Shown: positions 16,464 through 50,017 of the stretch, one piece after another
Position numbering within the stretch: position 1 is the first letter of the stretch
Layout: each line of letters begins with the position of its first letter
Assembly (NCBI GenBank): GCA_046076065.1
Contig: JBJTRH010000041.1
Span: 1-51,509 of the forward strand
Length of the DNA: 51,509 nt
Direction: 5' to 3'
Source: Planctomycetaceae bacterium
GTDB lineage: Bacteria; Planctomycetota; Planctomycetia; Pirellulales; UBA1268
Notes under the pieces: model-generated
Told to the model about the DNA's origin: nothing
Database searches by the model: none
What the model saw: only the letters and a program-made list of their open reading frames with translations
Position numbers and translations under genes: made by a program

Positions 16464-16520
16464 CGGCGACGCCGCGAGGCGCTCCCTGCGAGCCGGCCTG
16501 TAGCGTAGCCTACGCGGGCC

Positions 16521-24324: not shown

Positions 24325-24413
24325 TGCGGAGGTCGGTTCATCATGGGCCTCCCCGTTTGACTACGTGGAGAGGTTGCCCCAGACTAAGCGGCTTCCTTGT
24401 GGCAGGCACATGC

Positions 24414-27427: not shown

Positions 27428-28466
27428 GCGGTGGTCCGGCCGTTTCGACGCCCAGTACGACAGACTCGTAGGCGTGCAGCGACGGCAGGCCGCCGGTGTG
27501 CAGAAACAGCACATTCTGGTCGGCCGTCCACAGGCCTTCGCGGGCCAGGCCGATGAGCCCTGCCATGATCTTCCCCGTGTAGATCGGGTCGAGCAGGATG
27601 CCCTCGGTGCGGGCAAGCATCCGGACGGCTTCCACCATGCCGTCGTTCGGCAGGGAATACTTCGGCTGCCAGTAGCCGCCGATGCAGCGGACCGCCTCCG
27701 GCGGAATCTCGATGCCAAGTTCGAGCAGGTCGGCCACGGCCTGAGCCTCGGCGCGGACGATGGGTATCTGATCGTGCGGATCCCGGCTCACGCCGATGCC
27801 GAGCAAGGGCACGTCGATGCGATTCCCCAGGAAGCCGGCGAGCAGGCCGCCATGCGTGCCTGAGCTGCCCGAGCCCACTACCACCGCGTCGAACGCCAGG
27901 CCCATCTCGAACCACTGCTGCTGCATCTCCAGCGCGCAGGCCGCGTAGCCGAGACCGCCGAGCGCGTTCGATCCTCCGGTGGGGATGATGTAGCCCGCGC
28001 GGCCCTCCGCGGCGAGTTCATCGGCCACCTCCTGCATGGCCTGCGACAGGCAGCTGCCGCCTGGCACGACGGTGACCGCTTCCACGCCCATGAGGCGGAA
28101 AAGGAACTGATTCCCGCTGGCGTCGATGCGATAGCTGCCCGGGATCCGTTCTTCGATGACGAATCGGCACTTCAGGCCCTCCTTGACGGCCGCCGCCAGC
28201 GTGAGGCGGCAGTGGTTGGACTGCGGTGCTCCCGCCGTGATCAGCGTGTCAGCGCCACGGGCCAGGGCATCGGCCACGAGGAACTCGAGCTTGCGGGTCT
28301 TGTTGCCGCCCGGGAACAGACCCAACATGTCGTCGCGCTTGACCCACACCCGAGGGCCCGAGCCACCCGGGCAACCCGCTGCCAAGGCCGCCGAGAATCG
28401 CGGTAGCGGCTCGATCGGGGTGACGAACGGCGTGTAGCGGCGTCGGGGAAAACTCGACAGGTCCAT
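27378..28466 (-). CDS. PLP-dependent D-cysteine desulfhydrase / ACC deaminase family protein
   Basis: 362 aa. Motifs KRDDMLGLFPGGNKTRKLEFLVADALARGADTLITAGAPQSNH (PLP lysine context) and GSGSSGTHGGL. Its 3' end overlaps the dipeptidase 3' end by 50 nt. Confidence 0.8.
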   Translation of the reverse strand: MDLSSFPRRRYTPFVTPIEPLPRFSAALAAGCPGGSGPRVWVKRDDMLGLFPGGNKTRKLEFLVADALARGADTLITAGAPQSNHCRLTLAAAVKEGLKCRFVIEERIPGSYRIDASGNQFLFRLMGVEAVTVVPGGSCLSQAMQEVADELAAEGRAGYIIPTGGSNALGGLGYAACALEMQQQWFEMGLAFDAVVVGSGSSGTHGGLLAGFLGNRIDVPLLGIGVSRDPHDQIPIVRAEAQAVADLLELGIEIPPEAVRCIGGYWQPKYSLPNDGMVEAVRMLARTEGILLDPIYTGKIMAGLIGLAREGLWTADQNVLFLHTGGLPSLHAYESVVLGVETAGPPLTAVRPPVTPAARCGS

Positions 28467-32843: not shown

Positions 32844-32924
32844 CCGAGCGGCGCCGATGGCTGCACGGTGTCGGGGCGATGGTTGCGCACGATTCTGCGG
32901 GGGTCGAAGAAAGGAGCGGGTGCG

Positions 32925-35366
32925 ATGCGAGACGGAGCGGCTCAACGATCGGCGATCGTCTGCGCTATCGTCCTCTCGGCGGCGATGCAGATGCGGGCGG
33001 ACGGCCAGGAGATCGTGACCTACGTCGGCGGCACCGGCGCGACCACCACAAGCCAGCAGAGCTGGACGCAGCCGGGAAACTGGACGTCGGGCTCCATTCC
33101 GTGCGGCCCGACGGTCTGGGCCCAGATCAATCCGGCGGGCGCGGCGGGATCGACGCTACGGATTCTGTACTCGTCGACGTCGCTGGCGGGATTGACGGGC
33201 ACGACGAACGTGCTGAGCGTCGGCGCGATGACATTTCCGCAGACGCTCGTGAGCGCGTCGACGACCTACTCGATCCAGAATAATGGCACCTCCGCCGGCA
33301 CCAAGGGCACGCTGAGGTTCTACGGCGTCGATACGACCATCGGTGGTCAGCCGCGAAGGGTGATCATCGACAACAGCACGACGCTCTCCGACGTCGCGTT
33401 CACCCAGACGAACCAGGGGCAGGAGTTCGAGCTCAACACGTCGGGGGTGATCAATGTCGCCGCGGGCACGCAACTCTCGCTCTCGACGATGGTCAGGCAG
33501 GACGGCACGGCGCGGTCGATCACGAAGGTCGGGAACGGCGTGCTCGCCTTCGCCGGCACCGGCAATCAATCGAGCCTCAGCACCTACACGGGCGGGTTCG
33601 TGCTCGAGGGCGGCGTCGTGCAGTGGGCGCTGAGCGGCACGGCGGCCTCTGGCACCCCGTTCGGAATCGGTTCGTTGACGCTGCGGAACGGCATCCTGCG
33701 GTCGACGGGCACGTCGGGCCGCTCCGTCAACGTGAGTGTCGTGCTCGACGGCACGGCGGAGATCGGGTCCACGTCCTCCGGGCTGACCGGTGGCATCACG
33801 GTGAACAGCGCCGGCGGCAGCCTGGCCACATCCGTGCGACGCGATAGCGTGCTAGCCATCGCGGATGGCCAGTCGACGACGTGGCACCAGGCCACGACCG
33901 GTTCCGGCGGGCTGACGAAGGCCGGTGGTGGTACCCTGCGGTTCTCCGGTGCCGGCGGCACGCTGGCGCACTCCGGCAGCACGGTCGTGCAGTCGGGCAC
34001 GCTGGTGATGGACGCGGTTCTGGCATCGCCGAGCGGCGCCACGATCCTGGCCGGGGCGGCGCTGCTGGGCTCCGGCACGCTCTCGAGTCCGACGACGATC
34101 TCCGGCAGCGCCACGCTTTCTCCCGGCAGCGGCGTGGGTGCCCTTTCGTTCGGGAACGTCACCTGGTCGCCGGGCGTCAACTACAACTGGCAGATTCAGT
34201 CGGGCACCGGCGGGGCAGGCAGCGGCTGGGATCTTGCTTCCGCCAGCGGCACCCTGGCCATCGCCGCGACGATCGGCAGTCCGGTAAAGCTCAACCTCTG
34301 GTCGGTGACGGGCACCACGCCCGACGTGACCGGTACCGCGACGGGCTTCGATCCCGCAGCGAGCAGCTACATCTGGCCCGTGGCCAGCGCGAACCGCGGG
34401 GTCACCGGCTTTTCGGCAGCCAAGTTCGTCATCGACACGTCCGCGGTCAACGGCACCGGTGGCTTCACCAACGACCTCGCCGGCGGTGCATTCAGCGTGG
34501 CTCAGATCGGGAACACGCTGGCGCTCGTGTTCACCTCAACGGCCTCCCGGCCCGTCATCACGATCGGCGTGTCCGGTACGCAGACCCAGGCCCAGACAGG
34601 TTGGCCGCTGCTGTCAGGCACTTACCCCCTGTTCAAGACGGGCACGGGCACGCTCGTGGTCGATCAGGCCAACACGATCACCGGGTCCACCGCCGTTCAG
34701 GCGGGTCGCCTCCAGTTGGCCAATGCAGCCGCGCTCGCCACTAGCCGAGTGGTGCCTCTGGCCGGCGGCACCGTGACCCTGTCGCCTGGGCTCACCACCA
34801 CCGTAGGCGGCCTGGATCCCAGTGCCGGCGGTCTCGTCGATGTCGGAAACGGGTTCGTGACGGTCACTGCGGGCCTGCCCGCCGCCGGCATGCTCGCGGC
34901 TCTGCTTGCCGGTCGCGGCGATGGCTCCTGGAACGGCACGACCGGGATCACGTCGTCTGCAGCGGCGGACGCCATCGCCAAGTCGCTGCCGCGGACGGTC
35001 GGCTGGCTCGACAATGGCGATGGCTCGGTCAGTTTCGCCTTCGCGGCATCGGGCGACACCAACCTCGACTGGAGCGTCGACATCCTCGATGCGGCCAACT
35101 TCTTCGCCGGCGGCAAGTACGACTCCGGCCAGCCGTCGTCGTGGATCGACGGCGATTTCAACTACGACGGCGTCGTTGACATCCTGGACGCCGCCGATTT
35201 CTTCTCGACCGGCCTGTTCGACGCCGGCGGCTACAACCCGCCTCCTGCCGGCGGGGCGGTCATGGCCGTGCCCGAGCCCTCGGTCGGCCTGGGGTGCCTG
35301 GCGGCCGTTGGAATCCTTGTGTGCCGGTGTCGGTTATCCAAGCCCAGATCGTTCGTCGAGGAGTGA
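32925..35366 (+). CDS. PEP-CTERM surface protein with autotransporter-associated beta-strand repeats and a dockerin-like pair (modules A+B)
   Basis: ATG at 32925, preceded by aaggag at 32911-32916. Signal peptide present. Repeats of the type TKVGNGVLAFAGTG / TKAGGGTLRFSGAGG / GTLVM. C-terminus has GDTNLDWSVDILD, GDFNYDGVVDILD and VPEPSVGLGCLAAVGILVCRCR. Confidence 0.8.
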   Translation: MRDGAAQRSAIVCAIVLSAAMQMRADGQEIVTYVGGTGATTTSQQSWTQPGNWTSGSIPCGPTVWAQINPAGAAGSTLRILYSSTSLAGLTGTTNVLSVGAMTFPQTLVSASTTYSIQNNGTSAGTKGTLRFYGVDTTIGGQPRRVIIDNSTTLSDVAFTQTNQGQEFELNTSGVINVAAGTQLSLSTMVRQDGTARSITKVGNGVLAFAGTGNQSSLSTYTGGFVLEGGVVQWALSGTAASGTPFGIGSLTLRNGILRSTGTSGRSVNVSVVLDGTAEIGSTSSGLTGGITVNSAGGSLATSVRRDSVLAIADGQSTTWHQATTGSGGLTKAGGGTLRFSGAGGTLAHSGSTVVQSGTLVMDAVLASPSGATILAGAALLGSGTLSSPTTISGSATLSPGSGVGALSFGNVTWSPGVNYNWQIQSGTGGAGSGWDLASASGTLAIAATIGSPVKLNLWSVTGTTPDVTGTATGFDPAASSYIWPVASANRGVTGFSAAKFVIDTSAVNGTGGFTNDLAGGAFSVAQIGNTLALVFTSTASRPVITIGVSGTQTQAQTGWPLLSGTYPLFKTGTGTLVVDQANTITGSTAVQAGRLQLANAAALATSRVVPLAGGTVTLSPGLTTTVGGLDPSAGGLVDVGNGFVTVTAGLPAAGMLAALLAGRGDGSWNGTTGITSSAAADAIAKSLPRTVGWLDNGDGSVSFAFAASGDTNLDWSVDILDAANFFAGGKYDSGQPSSWIDGDFNYDGVVDILDAADFFSTGLFDAGGYNPPPAGGAVMAVPEPSVGLGCLAAVGILVCRCRLSKPRSFVEE

Positions 35367-35370
35367 CTCC

Positions 35371-36339
35371 ATGCAACGTCGAGGCTTCACGCTCGTGGAA
35401 CTGCTGGTCGTCATCGCGATCATCGCGGTCCTCATCGGCCTTCTTCTTCCGGCCGTGCAGGCGGCCCGCGAGTCGGCTCGCCGGTCGTCGTGTCAGAACA
35501 ATCTCAAGCAGATCGGACTCTCGCTGCTCGGGCATCACGATGCCCGCAAGCGATTTCCCGGGGGCTTCCTCAGGAATGCGGACTACTCCGTCGGCACCTT
35601 CAATGGTCCCGGATGGGGGTGGGGCGCGATGATCCTGCCCCAGATCGAGGAGGCGACGCTCTTCGACAAACTTCGGCCCGCCAGTCGGGATCTCTCCACG
35701 GCCGCCGACATCGTCGCGCTGGCGCAGACGAGGGTGCCGGCGTTTCGCTGTGCGTCGTGCCCCGTGTCGTCGAACCTCAACGAAGCGTTGCCCGGCACGG
35801 CCACCGCGCCGGCGTTCTCGCTGTCGAACTACAAGGGCGTGTTCGGCGATCGCAACACGCAGGCCAAGTACAGCGACCTCGGCAACTGCCCGAACTTTGC
35901 CGGCAGTTGCATCGAGGGGGGCAACGGCATCTTCAGCCCCGGCACGAGGTCCACGGGCGTGAAGATGAAGGATATCACGGACGGTGCCAGCAAGACGCTT
36001 CTCGTCGGCGAAGTGCCGTACGGCCCCAACGGCGCCGAGAACTCGTCGGGCGGCCTCGTGTCGTACCGGGGTGCCGTCTGGGCGGGCGTGATCGCCCAGG
36101 CCGCCGAAAGCAACGTCGCGACCCACCAGACGCTGCGGGGCCTTCTCGCTTCCGGGGCCGCGAGCACCGAGTACATCCCCAACGGCACCAACAGCAATGC
36201 ATTCGGTTCGCACCACACGGCCGGCACCGGGTTTGTTCTGGCCGACGGCAGCGTGCGTTTGCTGACCAGTGCTCTCGACGCGGCCGTGCTCAACCGTCTC
36301 GCCGCCCGCGACGACGGCCAGGTCATCGACGCGTTCTGA
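35371..36339 (+). CDS. DUF1559 protein with prepilin-type N-terminal cleavage/methylation domain and H-X9-DG C-terminal motif
   Basis: In-frame ATG at 35371 within track ORF 34906..36339. N-terminus MQRRGFTLVELLVVIAIIAVLIGLLLPAVQAARESARRSSCQNNLKQIGL and C-terminal FGSHHTAGTGFVLADGSV. Starts 4 nt after the upstream stop. Confidence 0.85.
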   Translation: MQRRGFTLVELLVVIAIIAVLIGLLLPAVQAARESARRSSCQNNLKQIGLSLLGHHDARKRFPGGFLRNADYSVGTFNGPGWGWGAMILPQIEEATLFDKLRPASRDLSTAADIVALAQTRVPAFRCASCPVSSNLNEALPGTATAPAFSLSNYKGVFGDRNTQAKYSDLGNCPNFAGSCIEGGNGIFSPGTRSTGVKMKDITDGASKTLLVGEVPYGPNGAENSSGGLVSYRGAVWAGVIAQAAESNVATHQTLRGLLASGAASTEYIPNGTNSNAFGSHHTAGTGFVLADGSVRLLTSALDAAVLNRLAARDDGQVIDAF

Positions 36340-36362: not shown

Positions 36363-36818
36363 ATGTCATTGTCCCGAACACGACGAGCGCTCTTGCCGCA
36401 TCTGGGGTCGCTTGCCTTCCTTGCCGGATGCTTCGGGCCGCCTGCGTTGAAGTACGACATGATTCCCGTCGAGGGGATCATCACCCTCGAGGGCACCCCG
36501 CTGGTTGCGGCCGAGGTGATGTTCGATTCCGCGGATGGGCCTCGAGGGTTCGGGACCACCGACGAGTCGGGCAGATTCACGGTCATGACGAGGCAGTTCG
36601 GCGCAGGTCTGCCGGTGGGAACCTATCGAGTGATGATCGCCGGGTCGGAGCGGACGCGAGTCGCCCCGTCCGGCAAGCCCGTCAAACTCTCGCCCCGGTA
36701 TCGGGAATCCGGGGTTGGCAAGGCGACGATCGCAGTCGGAGGCGGACCGCTGCAGTTCGATCTCAAGAAATCTGCTGGGGCCGGCAGCGACGAGTCCGGC
36801 GATACGGCCGAACCCTGA
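36363..36818 (+). CDS. small lipoprotein (carboxypeptidase-regulatory-like beta-sandwich, typical DUF1559 neighbour)
   Basis: In-frame ATG at 36363 within track ORF 35490..36818. Lipobox LAFLAGC. Also GIITLEGTPLVAAEVMF...DESGRFTV...GTYRVMI. Confidence 0.6.
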   Translation: MSLSRTRRALLPHLGSLAFLAGCFGPPALKYDMIPVEGIITLEGTPLVAAEVMFDSADGPRGFGTTDESGRFTVMTRQFGAGLPVGTYRVMIAGSERTRVAPSGKPVKLSPRYRESGVGKATIAVGGGPLQFDLKKSAGAGSDESGDTAEP

Positions 36819-36853: not shown

Positions 36854-38500
36854 ATGAAGCGTTCCCTGTTTATCACGTTCGGGGCGGTGGCCGTTGCGGC
36901 TGTTGTCGCCCTGCATTCCCACCGCGCTGCGGCCCAGACGGTTTCGACGTTCCTCGGTGGCAGTGGCACCACGGAGCTGGCTCAGACCGGCTGGACCACT
37001 GCCGGCAACTGGAACACCTCAACCGTGCCCACGGGCACGGGCGTCTGGCCGCAAATCAACTCCAGCACGGCCACCGCACTGCGGGTCAACTACGGCAGTT
37101 CCGCGGTCGGTACGACGGGCACTCTCACGGTGGGTGCAATCTCGTTCCTGCCGACGCTCACCGTGGCGACCGGGAGCACGTACGAGTTTCGTAACAGCAG
37201 TTCGAGCCAGAGGGGTACCCTGCGGTTCTACGGCGTCGATACGACGGTGGGCGGCGTGCCGAGAAGGGTGATCCTCGACAACCGGACGGCACTCGGCGAC
37301 ATAGGGGTCAGTCAATCGAGCCAGGGCCAGGACTATGAGCTCTATACGTCCGGTGCGATCAACGTCGCCGCCAGCACGTCGCTCACGCTCTCGCCGTTGA
37401 TCCGCGATGGGAGCGGGTCGCGGTCGATCACCAAGGTCGGGCAGGGCGTGCTGTCGTTCGCCGGTGTCGGGTATGCGGCCACGACGACGAACAACTCCGG
37501 CTCGAGCACCTACTCCGGCGGCTTCGTCATGGACGGCGGGATCGTGCAGTGGGCCCTCAGCGGAACGGCCGGAGTCGGCACGCCCTTCGGCCTCGGAGCC
37601 CTGACGCTCCGCAGCGGAACCCTGCGATCGACGACCACGTCCGGACGCTCGATCAACTCCAGCGTGATCCTCGACGGCTTCGCGACGCTCGGCTCCGTGG
37701 ACAGTGGCTTCACGGGTTCGATCACGATCAACAGTTCGGGCGGTGCGCTCACAACGACGGTCGCCAGTGACAGCATTCTCACGGTCGTGGCTGGCGGATC
37801 GACGGCGTGGAACCAGGGGACGAGCGGAACCGGGAGCCTGACCAAGGCCGGGGCTGGGATCCTGCGATTCACCGGAGCCGGCGGAGCGCTCACCCACACG
37901 GGGAGCACGGTCGTGCAGTCGGGAACGCTCATCATGGCGGCCAACCTCTCGTCGTCGAGCCCCGTCTCGGTGCTGAACGCGGCAACGCTCCTCGGCACCG
38001 GCACGGTCGCCGGAGCGGCGTTGATTCAGGCAGGCGGTGTCTTCTCGCCGGGGGCGGTGAGCGGCACGGCGGGCGTGTTCACGTTTGGAAGCGGCGGGCT
38101 CGGCCTCGCGGGCCAGACGATCCTCGAGCTCTCGGGGACCTCTCGGGGCACGTCGTACGACGGCGTCAACATGGCTGGGGCACTCACCTACGGAGGCTCG
38201 CTCCTGCTCCAGTTCTCGGGCACGCTGCCGGAAGGGACGTACAACCTGTTCAGCGGCTTTGCCTCGCAGGTCGGCAGCTTCGCCTCGATCTCGGCCGCCG
38301 GCGGATACTCGGGCTCGCTGACGGAGGCATCCGGCGTGTGGAGCGGGACGTTTGGCCCCCAGACCCTCACGTTCACCAACGCGACGGGGGATCTCGTGAT
38401 CGTTCCAGAGCCTTCCTTGCTGCTCGCGGCGGGCGGGAGCCTTGCGATCGCCATCGGCGGCGTCGTACGCCGGCTGCGCGGTCCCCGGAGGGCGTCGTAG
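36854..38500 (+). CDS. PEP-CTERM surface protein with autotransporter-associated beta-strand repeats (module A paralogue)
   Basis: 548 aa with a signal peptide (MKRSLFITFGAVAVAAVVALHSHRAAAQ). Long near-identical stretches to 32925..35366, for example GTLRFYGVDTTVGGVPRRVILDN. C-terminal VPEPSLLLAAGGSLAIAIGGVVRRLR. Confidence 0.8.
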   Translation: MKRSLFITFGAVAVAAVVALHSHRAAAQTVSTFLGGSGTTELAQTGWTTAGNWNTSTVPTGTGVWPQINSSTATALRVNYGSSAVGTTGTLTVGAISFLPTLTVATGSTYEFRNSSSSQRGTLRFYGVDTTVGGVPRRVILDNRTALGDIGVSQSSQGQDYELYTSGAINVAASTSLTLSPLIRDGSGSRSITKVGQGVLSFAGVGYAATTTNNSGSSTYSGGFVMDGGIVQWALSGTAGVGTPFGLGALTLRSGTLRSTTTSGRSINSSVILDGFATLGSVDSGFTGSITINSSGGALTTTVASDSILTVVAGGSTAWNQGTSGTGSLTKAGAGILRFTGAGGALTHTGSTVVQSGTLIMAANLSSSSPVSVLNAATLLGTGTVAGAALIQAGGVFSPGAVSGTAGVFTFGSGGLGLAGQTILELSGTSRGTSYDGVNMAGALTYGGSLLLQFSGTLPEGTYNLFSGFASQVGSFASISAAGGYSGSLTEASGVWSGTFGPQTLTFTNATGDLVIVPEPSLLLAAGGSLAIAIGGVVRRLRGPRRAS

Positions 38501-38547: not shown

Positions 38548-39864
38548 ATGTGCCTGAGAAGCCCGATGCCCCGTGAAAAGGTGTTCGGTGCAATCGTGCT
38601 CGGTCTGCTGGTGGCGGTCCAGCCAGCTGCGCTCCGGGCCTGCACGACCGCGGTGATCACCGGCAAGGTGACCGCGGACGGCAGGCCGCTCCTCTGGAAG
38701 AGCCGCGACACGAAGAGCCTGCCGCGAAACGAGGTCGTGGTTTACGACGGCGGGAAGTACCGCGTGCTCGCCGTGGTGAACGCCGGCGATCGTGACGAGG
38801 TGTGGATGGGCGTCAACTCTGCTGGATTCTGCATCGAGAACTCGCTGAGTCGCGACCTGGACGTGCAGGGCGAGAAACGAGGGCCTGGCAATGGCGGCAT
38901 CATGAAGGTCGCGTTGGAGACATGCGCCACTGTGGCCGATTTCCGCGAACTCCTTCAGCGGACCAACGGCACGGGCCGCCGGACCGACGGCAACTTCGGC
39001 GTCATCGACGCCGTCGGCGGTGCTGCGCTCTTCGAGGCTGGTCCTCGGACATTCCGGATGTTCGATGCCAACGATCCGGAGGTCGCGCCGCGGGGTTACA
39101 TCGTGCGATCCAACTTTTCGACGACCGCACAGGGCGTGTCGCCGGCGCCCGACCCCGACAGCGTGGAGGGCACATACTCCGGGGATCGCTACGCGCGGGC
39201 ATGCGATCTGATCGATGGGCATCTGGGGGATGGCCTCGGTGTTGCCTACCTCCTGCGCCACGTCTGTCGGGACATGGCCGACGGCAGCGGGCGGCCATTC
39301 ACGGGAACTGTCAACGGCGCCCCTGGGAGCCTTCCGGGGGAGGTGAGCACTGCCGCCACGATCAGCCGCACGACGACCGTGTCGGCAGGTGTGTTTCACG
39401 GGGTGAAGCCGGGCGAGGATCCACGACTGACGACCATGTGGGTGCAGCTCGGAGACCCGAAGTTCTCGATCGCCGTGCCCTGCTGGGTCTTGTGCGAGTC
39501 GTTGAATGAGGCCGTCGCCGGTGAGAATGGCGGGGCGATTTGCTCAATTGCGACGACGCTTCGGGAGTGGAATCTTACCGAGGACCGCGATGGTGTTCGC
39601 ACCGAGCAGTTGCCCCAGGTCTGGGAGGACGTCTGGCCGGTGGAGGCCCGATTGATCGCCGCGGTCGAGAAGGTGCGGCAGCAGTGGGCCCTTTCCCCGC
39701 CCGGCCCGGACGACTACACGGAGACCCATCGGCATCTTGCCACGCAAGCGCTCGACGCGATGCGAGCCGAGTTGGAGGACATGAAGGAGGCGGCGCTGAG
39801 CCTTCCAGCGCCGCCGCCGCCGGTGTTTTCCCCATCATCCTCGGAGCCGGCGCTGGCGCCATGA
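38548..39864 (+). CDS. exported Ntn-hydrolase-like protein (peptidase C45 / C69 / choloylglycine hydrolase-like)
   Basis: In-frame ATG at 38548 (alternative at 38566) within track ORF 37807..39864. The signal peptide ends AALRA|CTTAVITGKVTADGRPLLWKSRD, exposing an N-terminal Cys, as expected for an Ntn nucleophile (or a lipobox Cys). Also MGVNSAGFCIENS, ALETCATVADFRELL and NFGVIDAVGGAALFE. The family call is by motif only. Confidence 0.6.
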   Translation: MCLRSPMPREKVFGAIVLGLLVAVQPAALRACTTAVITGKVTADGRPLLWKSRDTKSLPRNEVVVYDGGKYRVLAVVNAGDRDEVWMGVNSAGFCIENSLSRDLDVQGEKRGPGNGGIMKVALETCATVADFRELLQRTNGTGRRTDGNFGVIDAVGGAALFEAGPRTFRMFDANDPEVAPRGYIVRSNFSTTAQGVSPAPDPDSVEGTYSGDRYARACDLIDGHLGDGLGVAYLLRHVCRDMADGSGRPFTGTVNGAPGSLPGEVSTAATISRTTTVSAGVFHGVKPGEDPRLTTMWVQLGDPKFSIAVPCWVLCESLNEAVAGENGGAICSIATTLREWNLTEDRDGVRTEQLPQVWEDVWPVEARLIAAVEKVRQQWALSPPGPDDYTETHRHLATQALDAMRAELEDMKEAALSLPAPPPPVFSPSSSEPALAP

Positions 39865-40691
39865 CCACCACCATGCTTCCGCGGACTGTCGTCGTCTGCT
39901 GCGTGCTCGGGCTCGTGCTGGGCGGCGCAGCCGACCAGATCGCCGGTGCGGGCGACGAACGTGCGGTCGTGCGGGTCGCGATCTACGACGATTCGGCGGA
40001 AGCCGGCAAGGGCCCGGTGAACCTGCTGAGGATTCTGACGCCCGATGCCGGCTTTTCTTCGCGGCGGATCTCGTCTGGCGAGATCCGTCAGGGCATGTTG
40101 GCCGACTTTGACGTGCTGATCATGCCGGGCGGATCAGGCAGCAAGCAGGCGGAACGGCTCCAGGCGTCGGGCTGCGAGCAGATCCGCGATTTCGTGCGGG
40201 CGGGTGGAGGCTACGTGGGCATCTGCGCGGGGTCCTACCTGGCGAGTTCCCACTACGACTGGTCGCTGGGCCTGATCAACGCCCGCGTCTGGGATCGGGC
40301 CCACTGGGCGCGGGGTGGGGGAGATGTCTCGATCCGGATGTCCGATGCCGGGTGGCAGCTGCTGGGTCGAGGTGGCAGTGTACCCGTGCGATACAACCAG
40401 GGACCGCTCCTGGTTCCGGACGACGAGTCGGACCTTCCGGGCTACGAGGTACTGGCCACCTTCGAGACGGCGGTGGCCGACAAGGGCGCCCAGCCGGGGT
40501 CAATGGTCGGCACCCATGCCATCATCCGGTCGATGTACGGCCAGGGCCGCGTGATCTGCTACAGCCCCCATCCGGAGGCTGCGGGCGGGCCCAATGGCAT
40601 CATCGCGTCCGGCGTTCGCTGGGCGGGCGAGGGCCGCCCGGGACGAGCCGGCCGGCAGCCTGGAAAGCGGGCGAATCCGAGCCCCAGTTGA
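39861..40691 (+). CDS. exported class I glutamine amidotransferase-like protein (BPL_N-type domain)
   Basis: In-frame ATG at 39861 within track ORF 39540..40691, with an ATGA overlap with the upstream gene. N-terminal hydrophobic segment. Motifs VRVAIYDD, FDVLIMPGGSG and the nucleophile-elbow-like GGGYVGICAGSYLAS. Confidence 0.6.
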   Translation: MTTTMLPRTVVVCCVLGLVLGGAADQIAGAGDERAVVRVAIYDDSAEAGKGPVNLLRILTPDAGFSSRRISSGEIRQGMLADFDVLIMPGGSGSKQAERLQASGCEQIRDFVRAGGGYVGICAGSYLASSHYDWSLGLINARVWDRAHWARGGGDVSIRMSDAGWQLLGRGGSVPVRYNQGPLLVPDDESDLPGYEVLATFETAVADKGAQPGSMVGTHAIIRSMYGQGRVICYSPHPEAAGGPNGIIASGVRWAGEGRPGRAGRQPGKRANPSPS

Positions 40692-40752: not shown

Positions 40753-43119
40753 ATGCTCCCCCCACGATCGACCCGCCGCACGTCGCTCGCCGCCCTCGTC
40801 GTCGTGACGCTGGCCGCGCCTGCTGCAGCGGACGCACTCTCGTCAGGCTGGATCACGCTCGGCGGCGGCACGCAGACGCCCTACTACATCCGGACCACCT
40901 CGGTGCCAGGGCCGACGGTCATGGTCACCGGCGGCGTGCACGGCAACGAACCGGCCGGAGCCGCGGCCGCCAACCAGATCCGCACGTGGTCGATCACCAA
41001 GGGCACTCTGATCGTCGTGCCGTTCTGCGCGCCCCAGGCGCTCGACGCGAACACACGGGAGATCGCGGGTGAGGGCAATCTCAACCGTAACTTCCCCGGA
41101 GTCGGTGCCCCGATCACGGCCACGACGGGATCGACGGCGACGGCCCTGTGGGCCTTCGCCCGCCAGGTCATGCCCGGGTGGCACATCGACATGCACGAAG
41201 GCATCGGCATCGCCGGCGATGAAGCATCGACGTCGGTCGGGTCCAGCATCATTCACATGAATGAGTCGGTGACGAACTCGCAGGTCACGAAGATGCTCAG
41301 TGCCGTCAACGCGGGCATCACCGATCCCACCAAGAAGTTCTCGGACCTGGGCAGCACCGGCCCCATCGACACGAGCTTCGCTCGCGCGAGCGTGGCACAC
41401 CTGGGGGCGCGTGGCATGATCGTCGAGACCACCTCGACCGATCAGGTGCTCTCGCTGCGGGTCAATCAGCACCGGACGGCGGTCAGTCAGTTTCTCATGG
41501 ACCAGGGCATGATCGGCAGCGCGTTCGGCGGTCTGCGGAACGGGGTCGTCGACGAGTTCACGTTCGACGAGCCCGAGGGCTCGAGGCTCACGCAGGCCGG
41601 CAACTCCTATCCCAATGGCAATGCCTGGGACGTCTCGCCGTTCAGCACGCGGACCCAAGATGGCCTGTTGAAGATCCAACGCACACAGAGCGGCACGTCC
41701 ACAACGTCCACCGGCCTGCTCGGGGGGGGTGAGGTGCGGGTCCGGCGTGCCGGCGACACTGGCAACGTCGCCACGGACATCGGCGAGGGGTTTGCGACGA
41801 TGGTGGTCGACGGCTGGGATTTTCGCAGCACCCAGATCGGCGAGACGATCAGTTTCGGGTTCCGAAACGCCGTGTCTCCAACGGCCGAGGACACGGCGCA
41901 CATCGTGCTCAGGCGGACGGGGTTGGACGAGGTGTCGATCCTCGGGCAGGGATTCGGCACCGGCAGCGGCACGATCGGTTCCCAAGCCGTGTTTCGTGCC
42001 GTGCAGGACACGCCGGTGCAGTTCGTGCTCCAGCTCAACAAGCAGACCAACCTCAACGGCACGCCGCTGGTCTCCGGCGCCGCTGCGGGCGGCTACTACC
42101 GCGTCTTCTACCAGCCCCTCGGCCAGGACTTCGTCGAGGTCGGTAGCGGCGCGGCGGTGCGGCAGGATCGGAATGGCAATCATCTGACCATGCGGATTTC
42201 CGGGTCGATCGGCGCGAGCGGCGGTTCGTTCGACGTCGACCGCATGGCGTTCAGTTCGGTGCTTCCCGGACTGCTCGTTCCGCCATCCGCGCCCGGCGTC
42301 GTGAACCTGATGTGCACGACGGGCACGTTGACGCAGGGTCGGGCCGGTTTCCCATTTCTGTCGGGAACGACCAGGCTGGAGAAGACGGGCGCCGGCACGA
42401 TGGTGCTCGACGCCGCCAATGTGCTGACGGGGTCCACCACCGTCCTGGCCGGGAGGCTGCATCTGGCGAATGCGCTGGCCCTCCGCGCGAGTCGGGTCGT
42501 GCCGCTCGCCGGCGGCACCGTCTCGGTATCCGCCGGCCTGCAGACGATCGTCGGCGGGTTGGTCACCGACTCCGGCGGTCTGGTCGACCTGGGCAGCGGC
42601 ATGGTGACCGTTGCCGGTGGCCTCTCCGCCTCGAGCCTCGTCGACGCGATTCGGATGGGCAGGGCAGACGGGAGTTGGAGCGGAGCGCGGGGCATCACCT
42701 CCAACGCGGCGGCTGCGGCAGTCTCCCGGAGCGTCCCCCGCACGGTCGGCTGGCTTGACAACGGCGACGGATCGGTGACCGCCGCCTTCGCGGCAGCGGG
42801 CGACACCAACCTGGACTGGACCGTGGATTTGCTCGATGCCGCCAACTTTCTGGCGGGCGGCACGTTCGACGCGGGTTCGTCGGCGACGTGGAGCGAGGGG
42901 GATTTCAACTATGACGGCATCACGGACATTCTCGACGCCGCCGACCTGTTCTCGACGGGCTTGTACGATGCCGGCCCGTACAACGCGTCGGCCGGAGCCC
43001 CGTACGAGGTGAACGCGGTTCCCGAGCCGGCCAGCAACCTGATGGGCATCGCCTGCGCCGCATGCTGGGGGTGGGCCGCCTGTCGCAGGGTGCGCAGTCA
43101 TCGTCGACTCGTCAGTTGA
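40753..43119 (+). CDS. AstE/AspA-type (M14-like) zinc hydrolase domain fused to an unknown beta-rich middle region and the module-B repeat/dockerin-like/PEP-CTERM C-terminus
   Basis: 788 aa with a signal peptide. Motifs VMVTGGVHGNEPAG, GNLNRNFPG, WHIDMHEG and MIVETTS (zinc-ligand and catalytic-Glu contexts of the succinylglutamate desuccinylase/aspartoacylase family). The C-terminal ~260 aa is closely similar to the C-terminus of 32925..35366 and ends VPEPASNLMGIACAACWGWAACRR. Confidence 0.75.
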   Translation: MLPPRSTRRTSLAALVVVTLAAPAAADALSSGWITLGGGTQTPYYIRTTSVPGPTVMVTGGVHGNEPAGAAAANQIRTWSITKGTLIVVPFCAPQALDANTREIAGEGNLNRNFPGVGAPITATTGSTATALWAFARQVMPGWHIDMHEGIGIAGDEASTSVGSSIIHMNESVTNSQVTKMLSAVNAGITDPTKKFSDLGSTGPIDTSFARASVAHLGARGMIVETTSTDQVLSLRVNQHRTAVSQFLMDQGMIGSAFGGLRNGVVDEFTFDEPEGSRLTQAGNSYPNGNAWDVSPFSTRTQDGLLKIQRTQSGTSTTSTGLLGGGEVRVRRAGDTGNVATDIGEGFATMVVDGWDFRSTQIGETISFGFRNAVSPTAEDTAHIVLRRTGLDEVSILGQGFGTGSGTIGSQAVFRAVQDTPVQFVLQLNKQTNLNGTPLVSGAAAGGYYRVFYQPLGQDFVEVGSGAAVRQDRNGNHLTMRISGSIGASGGSFDVDRMAFSSVLPGLLVPPSAPGVVNLMCTTGTLTQGRAGFPFLSGTTRLEKTGAGTMVLDAANVLTGSTTVLAGRLHLANALALRASRVVPLAGGTVSVSAGLQTIVGGLVTDSGGLVDLGSGMVTVAGGLSASSLVDAIRMGRADGSWSGARGITSNAAAAAVSRSVPRTVGWLDNGDGSVTAAFAAAGDTNLDWTVDLLDAANFLAGGTFDAGSSATWSEGDFNYDGITDILDAADLFSTGLYDAGPYNASAGAPYEVNAVPEPASNLMGIACAACWGWAACRRVRSHRRLVS

Positions 43120-45981: not shown

Positions 45982-46265
45982 TGGGTCGCCCGGGATGTGG
46001 ACGGCGACTTCAGTTCGCGTTGGCGTGAGTTCCGGCGGTGATGGCTCATCGCCGCGCCGAGATGGCTGCGGTTCCAGTCCGACGGCCGGGTGGCGCTGAT
46101 TTGCCCGCGAAACGGCTGTGACTGCGAAACGGCGGTCCGATCGATTATTGTGGCGTGGGTCGGGAACGGTCGGTTTCGGTCCGGACGCGGCGAGTGTCCG
46201 GCCGGTGTCCCACGCGGGCGACGAGCCCTGCGGGAGCGGACGCCGGAAAACTGAAGGAGCGCTTG

Positions 46266-47327
46266 ATGATTTCGTTTCGGTTCGAGCACGTCTGCGTTGA
46301 GTCGTTCGGCCTGCACTTTCCCGACACCCTCCTGTCTTCCGCCGAGATCGAGGCCCGGATCGCCCCCGCCTACGATCGGCTGAGGGTTCCGGCCGGCACG
46401 CTGGAGCGGGTCAGCGGCGTGAGCACCCGCGGCATGTGGGCCACCGATGTCACGCCCAGTTCCGTGGCCACCGCGGCGGCCCGGCAGGCCCTCGACCGCT
46501 CCGGCTTGCGGCCGGATCAGATCGGCGCCCTGTTCAACTGCTCGGTGTCGCGAGACTTCTTCGAGCCTGCCACCGCCTGCCTCGTGCACCACAACCTCGG
46601 CATCCCCGAGGAGTCGCTGGTGCTCGACATCACCAACGCCTGCATCGGCTTCAGCGACGGCATGATCATGCTCGCCCACCTCATCGAGGCGGGCACCGTG
46701 AAGGCGGGGATCCTCTGCTCCGGCGAGAACATCTCCAAGGTCGTGCACACCACCTGCGACCAGCTGCTCGGCGACCAGGGCATCACCCGCGAGAAGCTCC
46801 TCCAGATGCTCCCCACGCTGACCCTCGGCTGCGGGGCCGTGGCGGCGGTGCTCTGCCACGACAGCATCTCCTCCAGCCGCCACCGGTTCGTCGGCGGGAT
46901 CGCCCGCTCGGCGTCGCAGCACCACCAGCTCTGCATCGGCAATGGCGACTTCAGCGTGGGGCAGGGGGAGGAGATCGCGCCGATCATGACGTCCGATGCG
47001 GCCCAGCTGATGATCGCCGCCGCCAAGCTCGGCGGCCGCGCGTTTCCCGACGTGACCGCGTCGCTCGGCTGGTCGAAGGAGCACGTCGATCACGTGTTCT
47101 GCCACCAGGTGGGGCGGCAGGTGAACGAGGCCTTCTACCAGGAGATGGGCCTCGACTTCGACAAGGATTTCACGATCTACAAGCGGTATGGCAACATGGT
47201 GTCGGCCGCGCTGCCGGCGGCGCTTGCGATCGGCGTGGAGGAGAAGGGCATCCAGCCCGGCGAGAAGATCCTGCTCACGGCCTTCGGGAGCGGGCTCAAC
47301 ACGCGGTTCCTGGCGTTCGAGTGGTAG
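46266..47327 (+). CDS. oleA: OleA-type thiolase (FabH-like 3-oxoacyl-ACP synthase III family)
   Basis: In-frame ATG at 46266, preceded by gaaggag. Active-site Cys context DITNACIGFSDG and a C-terminal FGSGLN. It is adjacent to the oleBC and oleD homologues. Confidence 0.75.
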   Translation: MISFRFEHVCVESFGLHFPDTLLSSAEIEARIAPAYDRLRVPAGTLERVSGVSTRGMWATDVTPSSVATAAARQALDRSGLRPDQIGALFNCSVSRDFFEPATACLVHHNLGIPEESLVLDITNACIGFSDGMIMLAHLIEAGTVKAGILCSGENISKVVHTTCDQLLGDQGITREKLLQMLPTLTLGCGAVAAVLCHDSISSSRHRFVGGIARSASQHHQLCIGNGDFSVGQGEEIAPIMTSDAAQLMIAAAKLGGRAFPDVTASLGWSKEHVDHVFCHQVGRQVNEAFYQEMGLDFDKDFTIYKRYGNMVSAALPAALAIGVEEKGIQPGEKILLTAFGSGLNTRFLAFEW

Positions 47328-47365
47328 CCGCCGGAGGCGGCCGATGATCGAGGCATGAACGCCCC

Positions 47366-50017
47366 ATGAGCGGAGCCGACGCCAGCGACAGCGGAATCCC
47401 GTTCGCCTATGGCCCGGCTTACCCGTTTCCCTCGCGGTTCGTCACGGTGGGCGGCCACCGGATGCACTACGTCGACGAGGGAAGCGGCCCGGTGGTCGTC
47501 TGCCTGCACGGCAACCCCACCTGGGGCTTCCTGTTCCGGAACATCGTCGCCGGCCTGCGGCACGAGTTCCGGGTGATCGTGCCCGACCACGTGGGCTGCG
47601 GGCTGTCGGACCGGCCACGCGACGCCCTCTTTCGGGCGGCCGACCGCATCGCCCACCTCGAGGAGTTCCTCGACCGGCTCGGCGTCGGGCGATTCGCGCT
47701 CGTCATGCACGACTGGGGCGGGCCGCTCGGCACCGGCCTGGCCGTCCGGCGGCCCGAGAGCGTCGAGCGGCTCGTGTACTTCAACACCACGCTCGCCGAG
47801 ATGGATCTCCTGCCGGCGATGATCCGCCGGGCCGCGTCGCCCCTGATCGGCCGGATGCTCACGCAGCACACCGCCCGATTCGTCTCGCTGCTCACGTCGC
47901 TCGGCGCGGCGCGGCCGCTGCCGGAGGAAGTCTGCCAGGCCTACCACCGCCCCTACCGCACCGCCGAGAGCCGCCGTGCGATCTGGGGATTCGTCCGCGA
48001 CATCCCGTTGTCGGCGAGCCATCCGACGGCGGCCTTGATGGACGATCTCGTGGTCCGGCTGCCGGCGCTGGCGGGCAAGCCGGTGCGGCTCGTGTGGGGC
48101 ATGAAGGATCCCTGCTTCCAGCCCGCGATTCTCGACCGAGTGGCCGCGCGGTTTCCCGACGCCGACGTCATCCGCATCGCCGAGGCCTCGCACCTGGTGC
48201 TCGAGGACGCGGCCAGCGAGTCGACCGCCGCGGTCCACGAGTTCCTGCGGCCGCTCGTGCCCGCCGCGGCCGTCCTGCCGGCGGTCGCGAAGCGGCCGGC
48301 CGCGCCCGTCCCGGAAGCCGTGCCCGCGCCGTCCCGGCCCGCCACCACCGGAAGCGGCCTCTACGGCTCGCTCCAGGCGGCCGCGGCCGCGGCGCCGTGG
48401 GTGTCGGCGGTCACCAAGGTGTCGTTTCCCCGCTGGAGCCGTCGGCCCCGCTACGACGCGATCGACTTCGCCGCCCTCGCCTCCCGGATCGACGCCTACG
48501 AGCGGGGGCTCACCGAGGCCGGGCTGCGGGCCGCCGAGCGGGTGATCATGCTCGTGCGGCCGGGCGTCGACTTCCTGGCGCTCAGCTACGCGGTGATGGG
48601 GCGGGGGGCCGTGCCGGTGTTCATCGACCCGGGCATGGGGGTCGATGCGGTCGTGGCCTGCATGCGGGAGGCCGCCCCGACCGGCTTCATCGGTGTGCCG
48701 CGGGCGCATCTGCTGCGGCTCAAGGCATCCGACGTCTTTCGCTCCCTGCGGTTCTGCATCGTCGCGGGCCGTGTCTCGCTCTTCGGCGCCACGCCGCTGC
48801 GGCGGCTGCGCCGCCCCGCGGCCGTCCGCCCGGCGCCGGTAACGCGGCAGGCCGACGATCCCGCCCTCGTCGCCTTCACGTCCGGCGCCACCGGCAGGCC
48901 GAAGGGCGTGATCTTCACCAACCGCATGCTGACGGAGCAGCTGGCCGTGTTCCGCGGCCAGTTCGGCTTCCGCGGAGGCGAGCAGGATCTGCCGCTCCTG
49001 CCCGTGTTCAGCCTGTTCACGGCGGCACTCGGCGTGGGGAGCATCTTCCCGCCGCTCGACCCCAGCCGGCCGTTGTCATTGGTGCCCGCGCAGATCATTC
49101 GCGTGATGCGCGACCTCGGCAACCAGACGTCGTTCGGGTCGCCGGCGCTGTGGACCAAGCTCGCCGACTACTGCCGGCGGACGGGCACCTCGCTGCCGAA
49201 TCTGCGGCGGGTGTTCATGGCGGGCGCGCCGGTGTCGTCGGCTACCATCGAGCTCGTGCGGAACGCCTGCCCCCAGGCGGAGAGCTTCACGCCCTACGGT
49301 GCCACCGAGGCGCTGCCGGTCACGCTCGCTGCGGCGGCCGACCTCAGCAGCCTGTCGCCGATCACCGCCCTCACCGGCGAGCAGGGCACGCCCGTCGGCC
49401 GCGCGATCGACGGCGTGTCGCTCCGCGTCGTCCTGCCGGTCGGCGATCCCGCTGGCGCGTCGCTTTGCGACTGCCCGAAGCGGGTGATCGGCGAGATCGT
49501 CGTCAGTGGTGGCACGGTGAGCTGCGAGTATCTCGCCCGCCCGGAGGCGAATGCCGCCAGCAAGATTCTCGAGGCCGGCCGCGTCTGGCATCGGATGGGT
49601 GACATGGGCTACCTCGACGACGAGGGACGCCTCTGGTTCTGCGGGCGGAAGGCGCACGTCGTCACGACGCCGGATCGCGTCCACCACAGCGTGCCGGTCG
49701 AGAACGTCTTCAATCGGCATCCCGAGGTGCGGCGCACCGCGCTCATCGCCGTGGAGGGCCGGCCGGCCCTGGCGGTCGAGCCGCGGTCACGACGGCTCGG
49801 CGCCGAGGCCCGCCGCCGCCTCGCGGGCGAACTTCGGGCGATCGGTGCCGCCGACCCGGTCACGGCCACGATCACGCGGTTCTATTTCCACGACTCGTTT
49901 CCGGTCGACGCCCGTCACAACGCCAAGATCTTCCGCGACCGTCTCGCCGAGTGGGCGGCCACGCAGACGCCGGTGGAGGTCGACGGCGGCGGGCCGGTGG
50001 CCGAGGCCCCGGCATGA
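47366..50017 (+). CDS. oleBC: fused OleB (alpha/beta hydrolase, haloalkane-dehalogenase-like) and OleC (AMP-dependent synthetase/ligase)
   Basis: 883 aa. The N-terminal domain has HYVDEGSGPVVVCLHGNPTWGFLFRN and LVMHDWGG. A Pro/Ala-rich linker follows. The C-terminal domain has LVAFTSGATGRPKGV (AMP-binding motif) and WHRMGDMGYLDDEGRLWFCGRK. Confidence 0.8.
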   Translation: MSGADASDSGIPFAYGPAYPFPSRFVTVGGHRMHYVDEGSGPVVVCLHGNPTWGFLFRNIVAGLRHEFRVIVPDHVGCGLSDRPRDALFRAADRIAHLEEFLDRLGVGRFALVMHDWGGPLGTGLAVRRPESVERLVYFNTTLAEMDLLPAMIRRAASPLIGRMLTQHTARFVSLLTSLGAARPLPEEVCQAYHRPYRTAESRRAIWGFVRDIPLSASHPTAALMDDLVVRLPALAGKPVRLVWGMKDPCFQPAILDRVAARFPDADVIRIAEASHLVLEDAASESTAAVHEFLRPLVPAAAVLPAVAKRPAAPVPEAVPAPSRPATTGSGLYGSLQAAAAAAPWVSAVTKVSFPRWSRRPRYDAIDFAALASRIDAYERGLTEAGLRAAERVIMLVRPGVDFLALSYAVMGRGAVPVFIDPGMGVDAVVACMREAAPTGFIGVPRAHLLRLKASDVFRSLRFCIVAGRVSLFGATPLRRLRRPAAVRPAPVTRQADDPALVAFTSGATGRPKGVIFTNRMLTEQLAVFRGQFGFRGGEQDLPLLPVFSLFTAALGVGSIFPPLDPSRPLSLVPAQIIRVMRDLGNQTSFGSPALWTKLADYCRRTGTSLPNLRRVFMAGAPVSSATIELVRNACPQAESFTPYGATEALPVTLAAAADLSSLSPITALTGEQGTPVGRAIDGVSLRVVLPVGDPAGASLCDCPKRVIGEIVVSGGTVSCEYLARPEANAASKILEAGRVWHRMGDMGYLDDEGRLWFCGRKAHVVTTPDRVHHSVPVENVFNRHPEVRRTALIAVEGRPALAVEPRSRRLGAEARRRLAGELRAIGAADPVTATITRFYFHDSFPVDARHNAKIFRDRLAEWAATQTPVEVDGGGPVAEAPA

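Follow-up and report, generated by a model that had tools for sequence, protein, structure and literature searches.

What an AstE/AspA-type zinc hydrolase might act on when it carries a signal peptide, a lectin-like domain and a surface-sorting tail, and which enzymes it acts with, is the question raised by the last gene of a seven-gene cassette on contig JBJTRH010000041.1 of a Planctomycetaceae bacterium (assembly GCA_046076065.1). The whole 51,509-nucleotide stretch, with a G+C content (GC) of ~70%, was analysed and is called the window below. The gene (40753-43119) encodes a 788-aa protein. The most valuable result of the analysis is a fusion-linked trio of predicted secreted amidohydrolases to which this protein belongs, together with a new domain family, rather than the single protein. 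For the cooperation of three abundant secreted hydrolases labelled "hypothetical", the pairwise fusions are bioinformatic evidence of unusual clarity. Literature searches returned no paper on this architecture or on the three-hydrolase module, and no characterised member of the exported M14-like clade, of its BPL_N partner or of the C45-like family.

The open reading frame (ORF; ATG start, stop codon included) has the boundaries given by a first-pass annotation made from the sequence alone, and all the motifs quoted there were recovered at their positions by a motif search of the translation. Its codon-position GC of 0.62/0.56/0.86 (GC3 0.86) is typical of coding sequence. A promoter and terminator scan gave fewer matches than shuffled sequence. 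Full-length orthologues (~30, at 50-85% identity) were found in metagenomes and in Planctomycetota metagenome-assembled genomes (MAGs), and several are annotated at source merely as "autotransporter-associated beta strand protein". The N-terminus, MLPPRSTRRTSLAALVVVTLAAPAAADA, combines a basic n-region, the hydrophobic core LAALVVVTLAA (Kyte-Doolittle 10-residue maximum of 2.87) and an AxA-type end (AAA/DA), and a signal-like N-terminus is kept in all orthologues of a 22-sequence alignment. It reads as a Sec signal peptide, as first annotated, and the protein would be exported. The architecture and catalytic competence described below are held with high confidence.

The catalytic domain and its relatives

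The assignment of the N-terminal part to the AstE/AspA type of the M14 fold was borne out. Pfam AstE_AspA_cat (PF24827) matches residues 52-231 (E=3e-12, 46.9 bits vs a cut-off of 25) and matches 22/22 orthologues. The characteristic motifs are VHGNEPAG (residues 62-69), NRNFPG (111-116), DMHE (146-149) and VETT (224-227). Residues H63, E66, R102, N111, R112, H148, E149, R211 and E225 are invariant in the 22-orthologue alignment. Across 120 homologues, the catalytic positions H63, E66, R102, N111, R112, H148 and E225 are at least 97% conserved, and R211, which sits in the flap motif DTSFARASV (206-214), is 93% conserved. The domain is therefore not degenerate: the substituted catalytic residues that the first-pass annotation had flagged as a possible weakness of its proposal were not found.

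A profile of the family was compared with PDB sequences. AstE/AspA-type structures (2qj8, 2e-13; 3cdx, 1e-11; DoeB 6twl, 2e-9; also 3na6) align over the N-terminal half only. Helicobacter Csd4 (4wcm, E=4e-12) aligns over the whole domain, including the DLHEG/HLHDG metal-ligand strand and the flap. Matches to MpaA and REP34 (5hxd, 2e-3; 4oko, 4e-4), AstE and ASPA are much weaker. At the sequence level, H63, E66 and H148 line up with their equivalents in both 2qj8 and Csd4. In Csd4 (PMC4220969), Arg86 serves to stabilise the oxyanion and Glu222 acts as general base, the free carboxylate at the C-terminus is bound by Asn93 together with Arg94, and the flap closes over meso-diaminopimelate. All of these residues have equivalents in the window enzyme: R86, N93, R94 and H128 align with R102, N111, R112 and H148, the flap D200-T208 aligns with D206-V214, and E225 lies one position off Glu222 in the alignment (ANEAS vs IVETT). 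By this comparison H63, E66 and H148 are putative zinc ligands, R102 would contribute to the oxyanion site, N111-R112 would form a carboxylate clamp and E225 would be the general base. Such a site points to a carboxypeptidase or deacylase mechanism in which the released residue has a free alpha-carboxylate, and Arg211 in the flap suggests a second carboxylate on that residue.

The domain is a relative of both AstE/AspA and Peptidase_M99 and a strict member of neither, because it lacks the AstE/AspA hybrid domain, the M99 glutamine ligand and the M99 accessory domains. Pfam at E≤1 returned only AstE_AspA_cat, PATR and M99, with no hybrid domain. NCBIfam models are far below threshold (DoeB, 30.9 vs 402.7 bits; AstE, 14.6 vs 170; ASPA, 13.8 vs 180; MpaA likewise), and M99 (PF17033) matches 21/22 orthologues, at best with E=2e-8. 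The AstE/AspA group (AstE, aspartoacylase, DoeB, CphZ), which provides the best Pfam match, shares the H-x-x-E...H triad, the Arg/Asn-Arg clamp and the general-base Glu. Unlike those cytoplasmic enzymes, the window enzyme is predicted to be exported, has no hybrid beta-domain over the active site, and passes directly from the catalytic domain into a concanavalin A-like (ConA-like) domain and then a surface anchor. The M99 enzymes (Helicobacter Csd4 and Campylobacter Pgp1, murein tripeptide D,L-carboxypeptidases) resemble it in being secreted M14-like enzymes with beta-rich accessory domains. Their metal motif is Q-x-x-E...H with an atypical Gln ligand (PMC4220969), whereas the window enzyme has His (H63-G-N-E66) as first ligand. 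By Pfam it lacks their middle beta-barrel and C-terminal immunoglobulin-like domains and has the ConA-like domain instead, along with other partners and a surface-sorting tail. MpaA (a murein tripeptide amidase) and REP34 are minimal M14-like domains that act on peptides ending in a dicarboxylic or basic residue; their similarity is much weaker, and MpaA is cytoplasmic. The enzyme is best filed within the M14-fold AstE/AspA-M99 group as an exported form without the hybrid domain, with a lectin-like domain and PEP-CTERM sorting.

In a scan of GTDB species genomes, at least 305 loci were found to code for relatives of this catalytic domain; they come from Verrucomicrobiota, Planctomycetota, Phycisphaerae, Syntrophomonas, Anaerolineales and further groups. 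A signal-like N-terminus is present in 110/114 complete homologues. The first-pass annotation had treated the signal peptide as an exception for enzymes that are normally small and cytoplasmic; the signal peptide stands, and the premise of exceptionality needs softening, since exported domains of this type are common. The catalytic domain belongs to a large exported clade between AstE/AspA and Csd4 (M99). Architectures within it vary: most Verrucomicrobia and Phycisphaerae encode a signal peptide, the catalytic domain and BPL_N, as does the cultured Rohdeia mirabilis Pla163 (508 aa), and Syntrophomonas encodes a signal peptide and the catalytic domain alone (253 aa). In Syntrophomonas sp. DTU019 (L060 10677-12374, minus strand) the gene for this 253-aa secreted domain lies tail-to-tail with that for a 565-aa protein. 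Full-length orthologues of the 788-aa protein occur in just two GTDB species representatives, both lake-named Planctomycetota MAGs (ZH-/ZE-3NOV15).

Partner hydrolases and gene fusions

The cassette consists of seven same-strand genes separated by -4 to 65 nt. Its full order recurs beside orthologues at 72-75% identity (L001-L003, L010), and its last four genes recur beside orthologues at ~50% identity (L004-L006, L011), with flanking genes that vary between loci; in all, five related contig sets keep the cassette. Two further predicted exported hydrolases directly precede the M14-like enzyme. The first is a C45-like N-terminal nucleophile (Ntn) hydrolase that matches NCBIfam NF040521 with E=5e-15, below the cut-off, and has an invariant Cys straight after the signal peptide in the orthologue alignment (AC/TTAVITGK). 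Sequence and profile searches against the PDB gave no match for it. Its family is large (1138 matches), with members in cultured Gimesia, Blastopirellula, Rosistilla, Rubinisphaera and Bremerella. The second is a BPL_N protein resembling class I glutamine amidotransferases (Pfam PF09825, E=1e-18), in which the invariant Cys122 and His237-Pro-Glu239 correspond in alignment to the catalytic Cys and the HPE of PdxT, a glutaminase.

Gene fusions link these proteins. Over its C-terminal half, an M14+BPL_N fusion (P0060) shares 37% identity (E=1e-45) with the BPL_N protein of the window. C45+BPL_N fusions make up 32 of 120 among the C45-like matches listed, and C45-like proteins fused to a ConA-like domain were also found. 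These three fusion types are all seen elsewhere than in the window, and taken together they mean that the M14-like, BPL_N, C45-like and ConA-like parts are all joined pairwise somewhere. BPL_N, as the hub of these fusions, seems to be the common partner. The pairwise fusions argue strongly for a single substrate or pathway on which all three hydrolases act, and that these form a three-enzyme module is considered likely. Because some carriers are in culture, the hypothesis is open to direct testing: the M14+BPL_N fusion occurs in Rohdeia mirabilis Pla163, and Gimesia maris (CP036353.1, L092 8001-10094) has adjacent C45-like and BPL_N genes, with no M14-like gene beside them.

The lectin-like domain and the C-terminal anchor

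The first-pass annotation had left a region of roughly 270 residues after the catalytic domain without assignment. The gap is real: residues ~259-512 have no match in Pfam or NCBIfam, and a family profile of the region retrieved no solved structure from the PDB by sequence. The fold search which that annotation had proposed was run on an AlphaFold2 (AF2) model of residues 259-512 built from a 40-sequence alignment, with 14 strands, a mean predicted local distance difference test score (pLDDT) of 89.1 and a predicted TM-score of 0.90. Foldseek returned ConA-like jelly rolls with E 3e-6 to 1e-4, TM ~0.5-0.57 and probability 1.00 (Emp46p/47p, ERGIC-53, legume lectins). The matches also include the phage J-1 Dit carbohydrate-binding module CBM2, the PilC lectin module, VIP36, botulinum toxin Hc-N and PL7 lyases. 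Identity to the ConA-like lectins and carbohydrate-binding jelly rolls (Emp46p/47p, ERGIC-53, J-1 Dit CBM2, PilC) is ~10%: the fold is shared, without a sequence-profile link. A separate full-length AF2 model (22 sequences), of low confidence at pLDDT 59, gave the same class of fold matches (legume lectins). The region is thus predicted to have a ConA-like lectin/glucanase fold and to define a new lectin-like domain family without a name, for which binding is the natural reading of the model.

An exhaustive HMMER search of 1.84 billion protein representatives found the domain in just 34 clusters. It occurs as stand-alone secreted proteins of ~240-290 aa, in one or two copies at the start of PEP-CTERM/dockerin-like proteins, and after C45-like hydrolases of the family encoded at 38566-39864, in proteins of ~650 aa. 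Examples elsewhere include P0121, P0124, P0126, P0127, P0128, P0134 and P0137. In one 759-aa orthologue (P0030), the ConA-like domain breaks into a subtilase S8 domain followed by low-complexity Arg-rich sequence; this entry is probably an assembly chimera or a frameshift.

The beta-strand repeats, two dockerin-like loops and PEP-CTERM tail proposed for the C-terminus were recovered at the motif level, and the PATR repeat also above its Pfam cut-off (residues 542-569; an autotransporter-associated beta-strand repeat in NCBIfam). By blastp with masking off, residues ~515-778 are ~70% identical to the C-terminus of the 832-aa PATR protein encoded at the start of the cassette. The beta-helix is modelled at pLDDT 80-92 in the full-length model. 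Loop 1, GDTNLDWTVDLLD (683-695), carries D684, N686, D688, D692 and D695, and loop 2, GDFNYDGITDILD (716-728), carries D717, N719, D721, D725 and D728; these are Asp/Asn at positions 1, 3, 5, 9 and 12, as in dockerin and EF-hand calcium loops. Helices follow the loops in the model (693-701 and 726-734), in a region with pLDDT below 50. Dockerin_1 (PF00404) scores 12.9 bits vs a cut-off of 22.9 (E=0.13, profile positions 1-50 of 57). No cohesin is annotated in the window, where no search aimed at cohesins was made.

The tail consists of VPEP (756-759), then ASNLMGIACAACWGWAAC, then RRVRSHRR, ending at residue 788. V756, P757 and P759 are invariant in orthologues, and PF07589 (PEP-CTERM) matches 4/22 of them at E≤0.1. 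This order agrees with the definition of PEP-CTERM by a PEP motif, a transmembrane helix and a basic cluster at the C-terminus, as given in PMC4960237, which cites Haft 2006. PEP-CTERM/PATR proteins of the Planctomycetes-Verrucomicrobia-Chlamydiae group have the same VPEP, hydrophobic helix and basic C-terminal cluster after PATR repeats; the passenger here differs in being an enzyme with a lectin-like domain. Because the Dockerin_1 and PEP-CTERM scores are below their Pfam cut-offs, "dockerin-like" and "PEP-CTERM-type" are used as motif-level descriptions. The C-terminus is best described as a putative PATR/dockerin-like/PEP-CTERM surface-sorting module, which would place the protein at the cell surface.

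Candidate substrates and other features of the window

The reading proposed here is that of an exported surface M14-fold zinc carboxypeptidase or amidase, one of three co-encoded secreted amidohydrolases that trim D- or iso-linked acidic peptides; belief and doubt in it are about evenly balanced. The substrate class is suggested by an exported racemase encoded with a gamma-glutamyltranspeptidase (GGT), the glutaminase-type partner, the Csd4-like clamp with a basic flap residue, and the lectin-like domain. In the proposed mechanism, the PEP-CTERM tail probably sorts the protein to the cell surface, the PATR beta-helix stalk would hold the enzyme out from the cell, and the ConA-like domain would probably hold it on a glycan-bearing polymer. 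Zinc on H63, E66 and H148 would polarise the scissile amide carbonyl, with R102 stabilising the oxyanion and E225 activating water. The N111-R112 pair would hold the leaving residue by its free alpha-carboxylate, which means release of a C-terminal (or N-acylated) amino acid, and R211 in the mobile flap would favour a leaving residue with a second carboxylate (Glu, Asp or meso-diaminopimelate). The C45-like N-terminal-Cys hydrolase and the glutaminase-type Cys-His-Glu BPL_N protein would act alongside in a proposed stepwise trimming of peptides with D- or iso-linked acidic residues, and the freed Glu or Asp would be taken up and catabolised. Sequential trimming of peptidoglycan stem peptides reportedly has a precedent in Helicobacter Csd6/Csd4.

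Genes upstream in the window are compatible with such a pathway. They encode a MurI-type glutamate racemase with a signal-like N-terminus, GGT, a signal-bearing M19 dipeptidase, a DcyD/ACC-deaminase-type pyridoxal phosphate (PLP) enzyme, phosphoenolpyruvate carboxykinase (PEPCK), an SDF symporter of the Glu/Asp/dicarboxylate type and a GntR/FCD regulator. The M19 dipeptidase, the PLP enzyme and GGT together look like a small cluster for the catabolism of gamma-glutamyl peptides or D-amino acids. At two related loci (L001/L002, 1-1369) the racemase and GGT are fused as one 970-aa protein directly upstream of the cassette, and at L010 the SDF and GntR genes lie upstream of it. An exported glutamate racemase is itself unusual.

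Peptidoglycan peptides are put forward tentatively as the first candidate substrate and poly-gamma-glutamate as the second. A wider picture is speculative: C45-like, BPL_N and M14-like proteins could form an extracellular three-step machine in Planctomycetota, Verrucomicrobiota and relatives that dismantles environmental stem peptides or other iso-linked D-acidic peptides, with ConA-like/PEP-CTERM targeting in some lineages and an exported racemase and GGT feeding Glu to the SDF symporter. Aquatic organic nitrogen is commonly said to include a large pool of peptidoglycan-derived and gamma-glutamyl material, and Planctomycetota and Verrucomicrobiota are considered important degraders of polymers. 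A surface-located amidase acting on gamma-glutamyl or murein-peptide substrates had been proposed in the first-pass annotation. This idea gains plausibility from the resemblance to Csd4, from the partner enzymes and from the upstream racemase, GGT, M19 and SDF genes, and the enzyme may have such a function; as a whole, that earlier interpretation, which did not include the ConA-like identity of the middle region, the cassette or the fusion links, is partly supported.

Several observations weigh against the trimming of D- or iso-linked peptides at the cell surface. The racemase/GGT/SDF linkage is confined to the closer clade (72-85% identity) and absent in the 50% clade (L004, L011), so it may reflect shared ancestry rather than function, and the fused M14+BPL_N genes of Verrucomicrobia and Phycisphaerae have unrelated genomic surroundings. 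The resemblance to Csd4 is distant, the Gln ligand and two accessory domains of M99 being absent, and the 788-aa protein scores 17.6 bits with M99, below the cut-off of 27. R211 is substituted in a minority of the 120 homologues, and the catalytic part of the full-length model reaches only pLDDT 50-80. A ConA-like fold is no proof of sugar binding, given that PL7 lyases and toxin binding domains match too. For the anchor, the PEP-CTERM hidden Markov model gives 14.6 bits on the isolated C-terminus vs a cut-off of 20.7 (E=0.035), and the 51.5-kb window has no exosortase (EpsH/Xrt) gene.

The same parts could instead degrade poly-gamma-glutamate or other gamma-glutamyl compounds, such as glutathione-type peptides and folyl-polyglutamates, an alternative judged rather unlikely. 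The GATase1-type Cys enzyme would then resemble gamma-glutamyl hydrolase, and the M14-like enzyme would remove C-terminal Glu in a reaction chemically near that of AstE on N-succinyl-Glu. Class I amidotransferases work via a gamma-glutamyl thioester, and the BPL_N protein aligns with PdxT at the Cys and at His-x-Glu. The nearest named families (AstE/AspA/DoeB), the nearby genes for GGT, glutamate racemase, M19 dipeptidase and SDF symporter, and an N-R clamp with R211 that would suit free Glu all fit as well. However, Pfam, PDB-profile and partner searches gave no similarity to poly-gamma-glutamate hydrolases (PghP/PghL, DUF867) or to C26 gamma-glutamyl hydrolase, the ConA-like domain and the C45 Ntn hydrolase have no obvious role on pure polyglutamate, and the link by gene context is again limited to the closer clade.

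Improbable substrates for the trio are N-acyl amino acids, lipo-amino acids, and acyl-amide signals and antibiotics; an aminoacylase and an Ntn acylase would then serve quorum quenching, detoxification or lipopeptide scavenging. C45 and related Ntn hydrolases such as penicillin V acylase and carcinine hydrolase cleave non-peptide amides, and source names of this kind appear among the C45-like matches listed. AstE/AspA enzymes are N-acyl-amino-acid deacylases, DoeB is a deacetylase, and Planctomycetes reportedly make N-acyl tyrosines (PMC7293339). A lectin-like domain on a surface stalk would nevertheless be better suited to polymers or particles than to small amphiphiles, R211 points to an acidic residue and not to an aromatic or aliphatic one, and the cassette is without lipid-related genes.

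A morphogenetic role of the Csd4/Pgp1 type, in remodelling the cell's own peptidoglycan, is quite improbable. Planctomycetes reportedly possess peptidoglycan (PMC4432595), and the whole-domain profile similarity to Csd4 and the M99 matches in 21 orthologues would agree with this role. The PEP-CTERM tail, PATR stalk and lectin-like domain, however, point outward and not to the periplasm, a presence in two GTDB species representatives is too sporadic for a core wall function, and the neighbours are catabolic and transport genes rather than genes of wall synthesis.

Slightly less probable still is a cyanophycin pair used for harvest from cyanobacteria, with a CphZ-like beta-Asp-Arg dipeptidase and a cyanophycinase-like GATase1 protein. 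Cyanophycinase (S51) has a GATase1-like fold, full-length orthologues come from lake-named Planctomycetota MAGs, and the SDF symporter and PEPCK would suit the use of Asp. As a precedent the system is instructive: CphZ, a zinc enzyme of the AstE/AspA family found clustered with cyanophycinase, uses the same R, N, R carboxylate clamp and needs an acidic D222/E223 pocket for Arg/Lys (PMC9974463). Here the flap carries Arg211 in contrast to that acidic pocket, the family profile matches the CphZ-type structures 3fmc and 3lwu with E-values of just 0.006 and 0.85, over the N-terminus alone, the partner is a BPL_N protein with Cys rather than an S51 enzyme with Ser, and no S51 or cyanophycin genes lie nearby in the window. 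With a flap residue that is basic and not acidic, and with similarity this weak, a CphZ-type function was judged unlikely.

That the protein is only an adhesin with a degenerate catalytic domain, as the source annotation of several orthologues might suggest, was rejected as almost certainly wrong on the invariance of the metal and catalytic residues in the orthologues and their near-complete conservation in the wider homologue set.

Table 1. Coordinates of the M14-like gene, its predicted domains, the cassette and upstream genes in the window.
Feature	Residues	Position	Strand	Description or basis
Whole M14-like gene		40753..43119	+	Signal peptide, M14-like zinc hydrolase, ConA-like domain, PATR beta-helix, dockerin-like pair, PEP-CTERM; last gene of the cassette
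Putative signal peptide	1-26	40753..40830	+	Read from sequence and hydrophobicity
Catalytic domain	27-258	40831..41526	+	PF24827, conservation, profile vs PDB
Predicted ConA-like jelly-roll domain	259-512	41527..42288	+	AF2 model and Foldseek; domain family without a name
Shared anchor module	515-788	42295..43119	+	~70% identical to C-terminus of ORF 32868-35366
PATR beta-helix	~535-680		+	PATR Pfam match, model
Dockerin-like loop-helix pair		42799-42837 and 42898-42936	+	Loop motifs
PEP-CTERM-type tail		43018-43116	+	VPEP, hydrophobic stretch, basic end
PATR/PEP-CTERM protein, 832 aa		32868-35366	+	Same anchor module
DUF1559 pseudopilin-like protein		35371-36339	+	
Small lipoprotein-like protein		36363-36818	+	
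PATR/PEP-CTERM protein		36854-38500	+	
Exported C45-like Ntn hydrolase		38566..39864	+	NF040521, orthologue alignment
Exported BPL_N / class I glutamine-amidotransferase-like protein		39861..40691	+	PF09825
Glutamate racemase, then gamma-glutamyltranspeptidase		22951-26195		Racemase motifs VFDSGIGGLTV, GCNTA, GCTHFP
Signal-bearing M19 "membrane dipeptidase" beside DcyD/ACC-deaminase-type PLP enzyme		26204-27427 and 27378-28466 (-)		

GC falls from ~0.72-0.76 (1-20 kb and 48-50 kb) to 0.65-0.70 between 28 and 47 kb, and the lower-GC stretch holds the cassette. Elsewhere in the window, a stop-free frame of 1578 aa (12867-17603, minus strand) contains GntP permease, cytochrome c, PA14 and PSD5/PSD4/PSCyt3 segments, and represents an odd fusion or else two genes that share one frame. 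A KAS III-like gene (46122-47327) is followed downstream by a fusion (47348-50017) of an alpha/beta-hydrolase domain with an AMP-binding (adenylating) enzyme.

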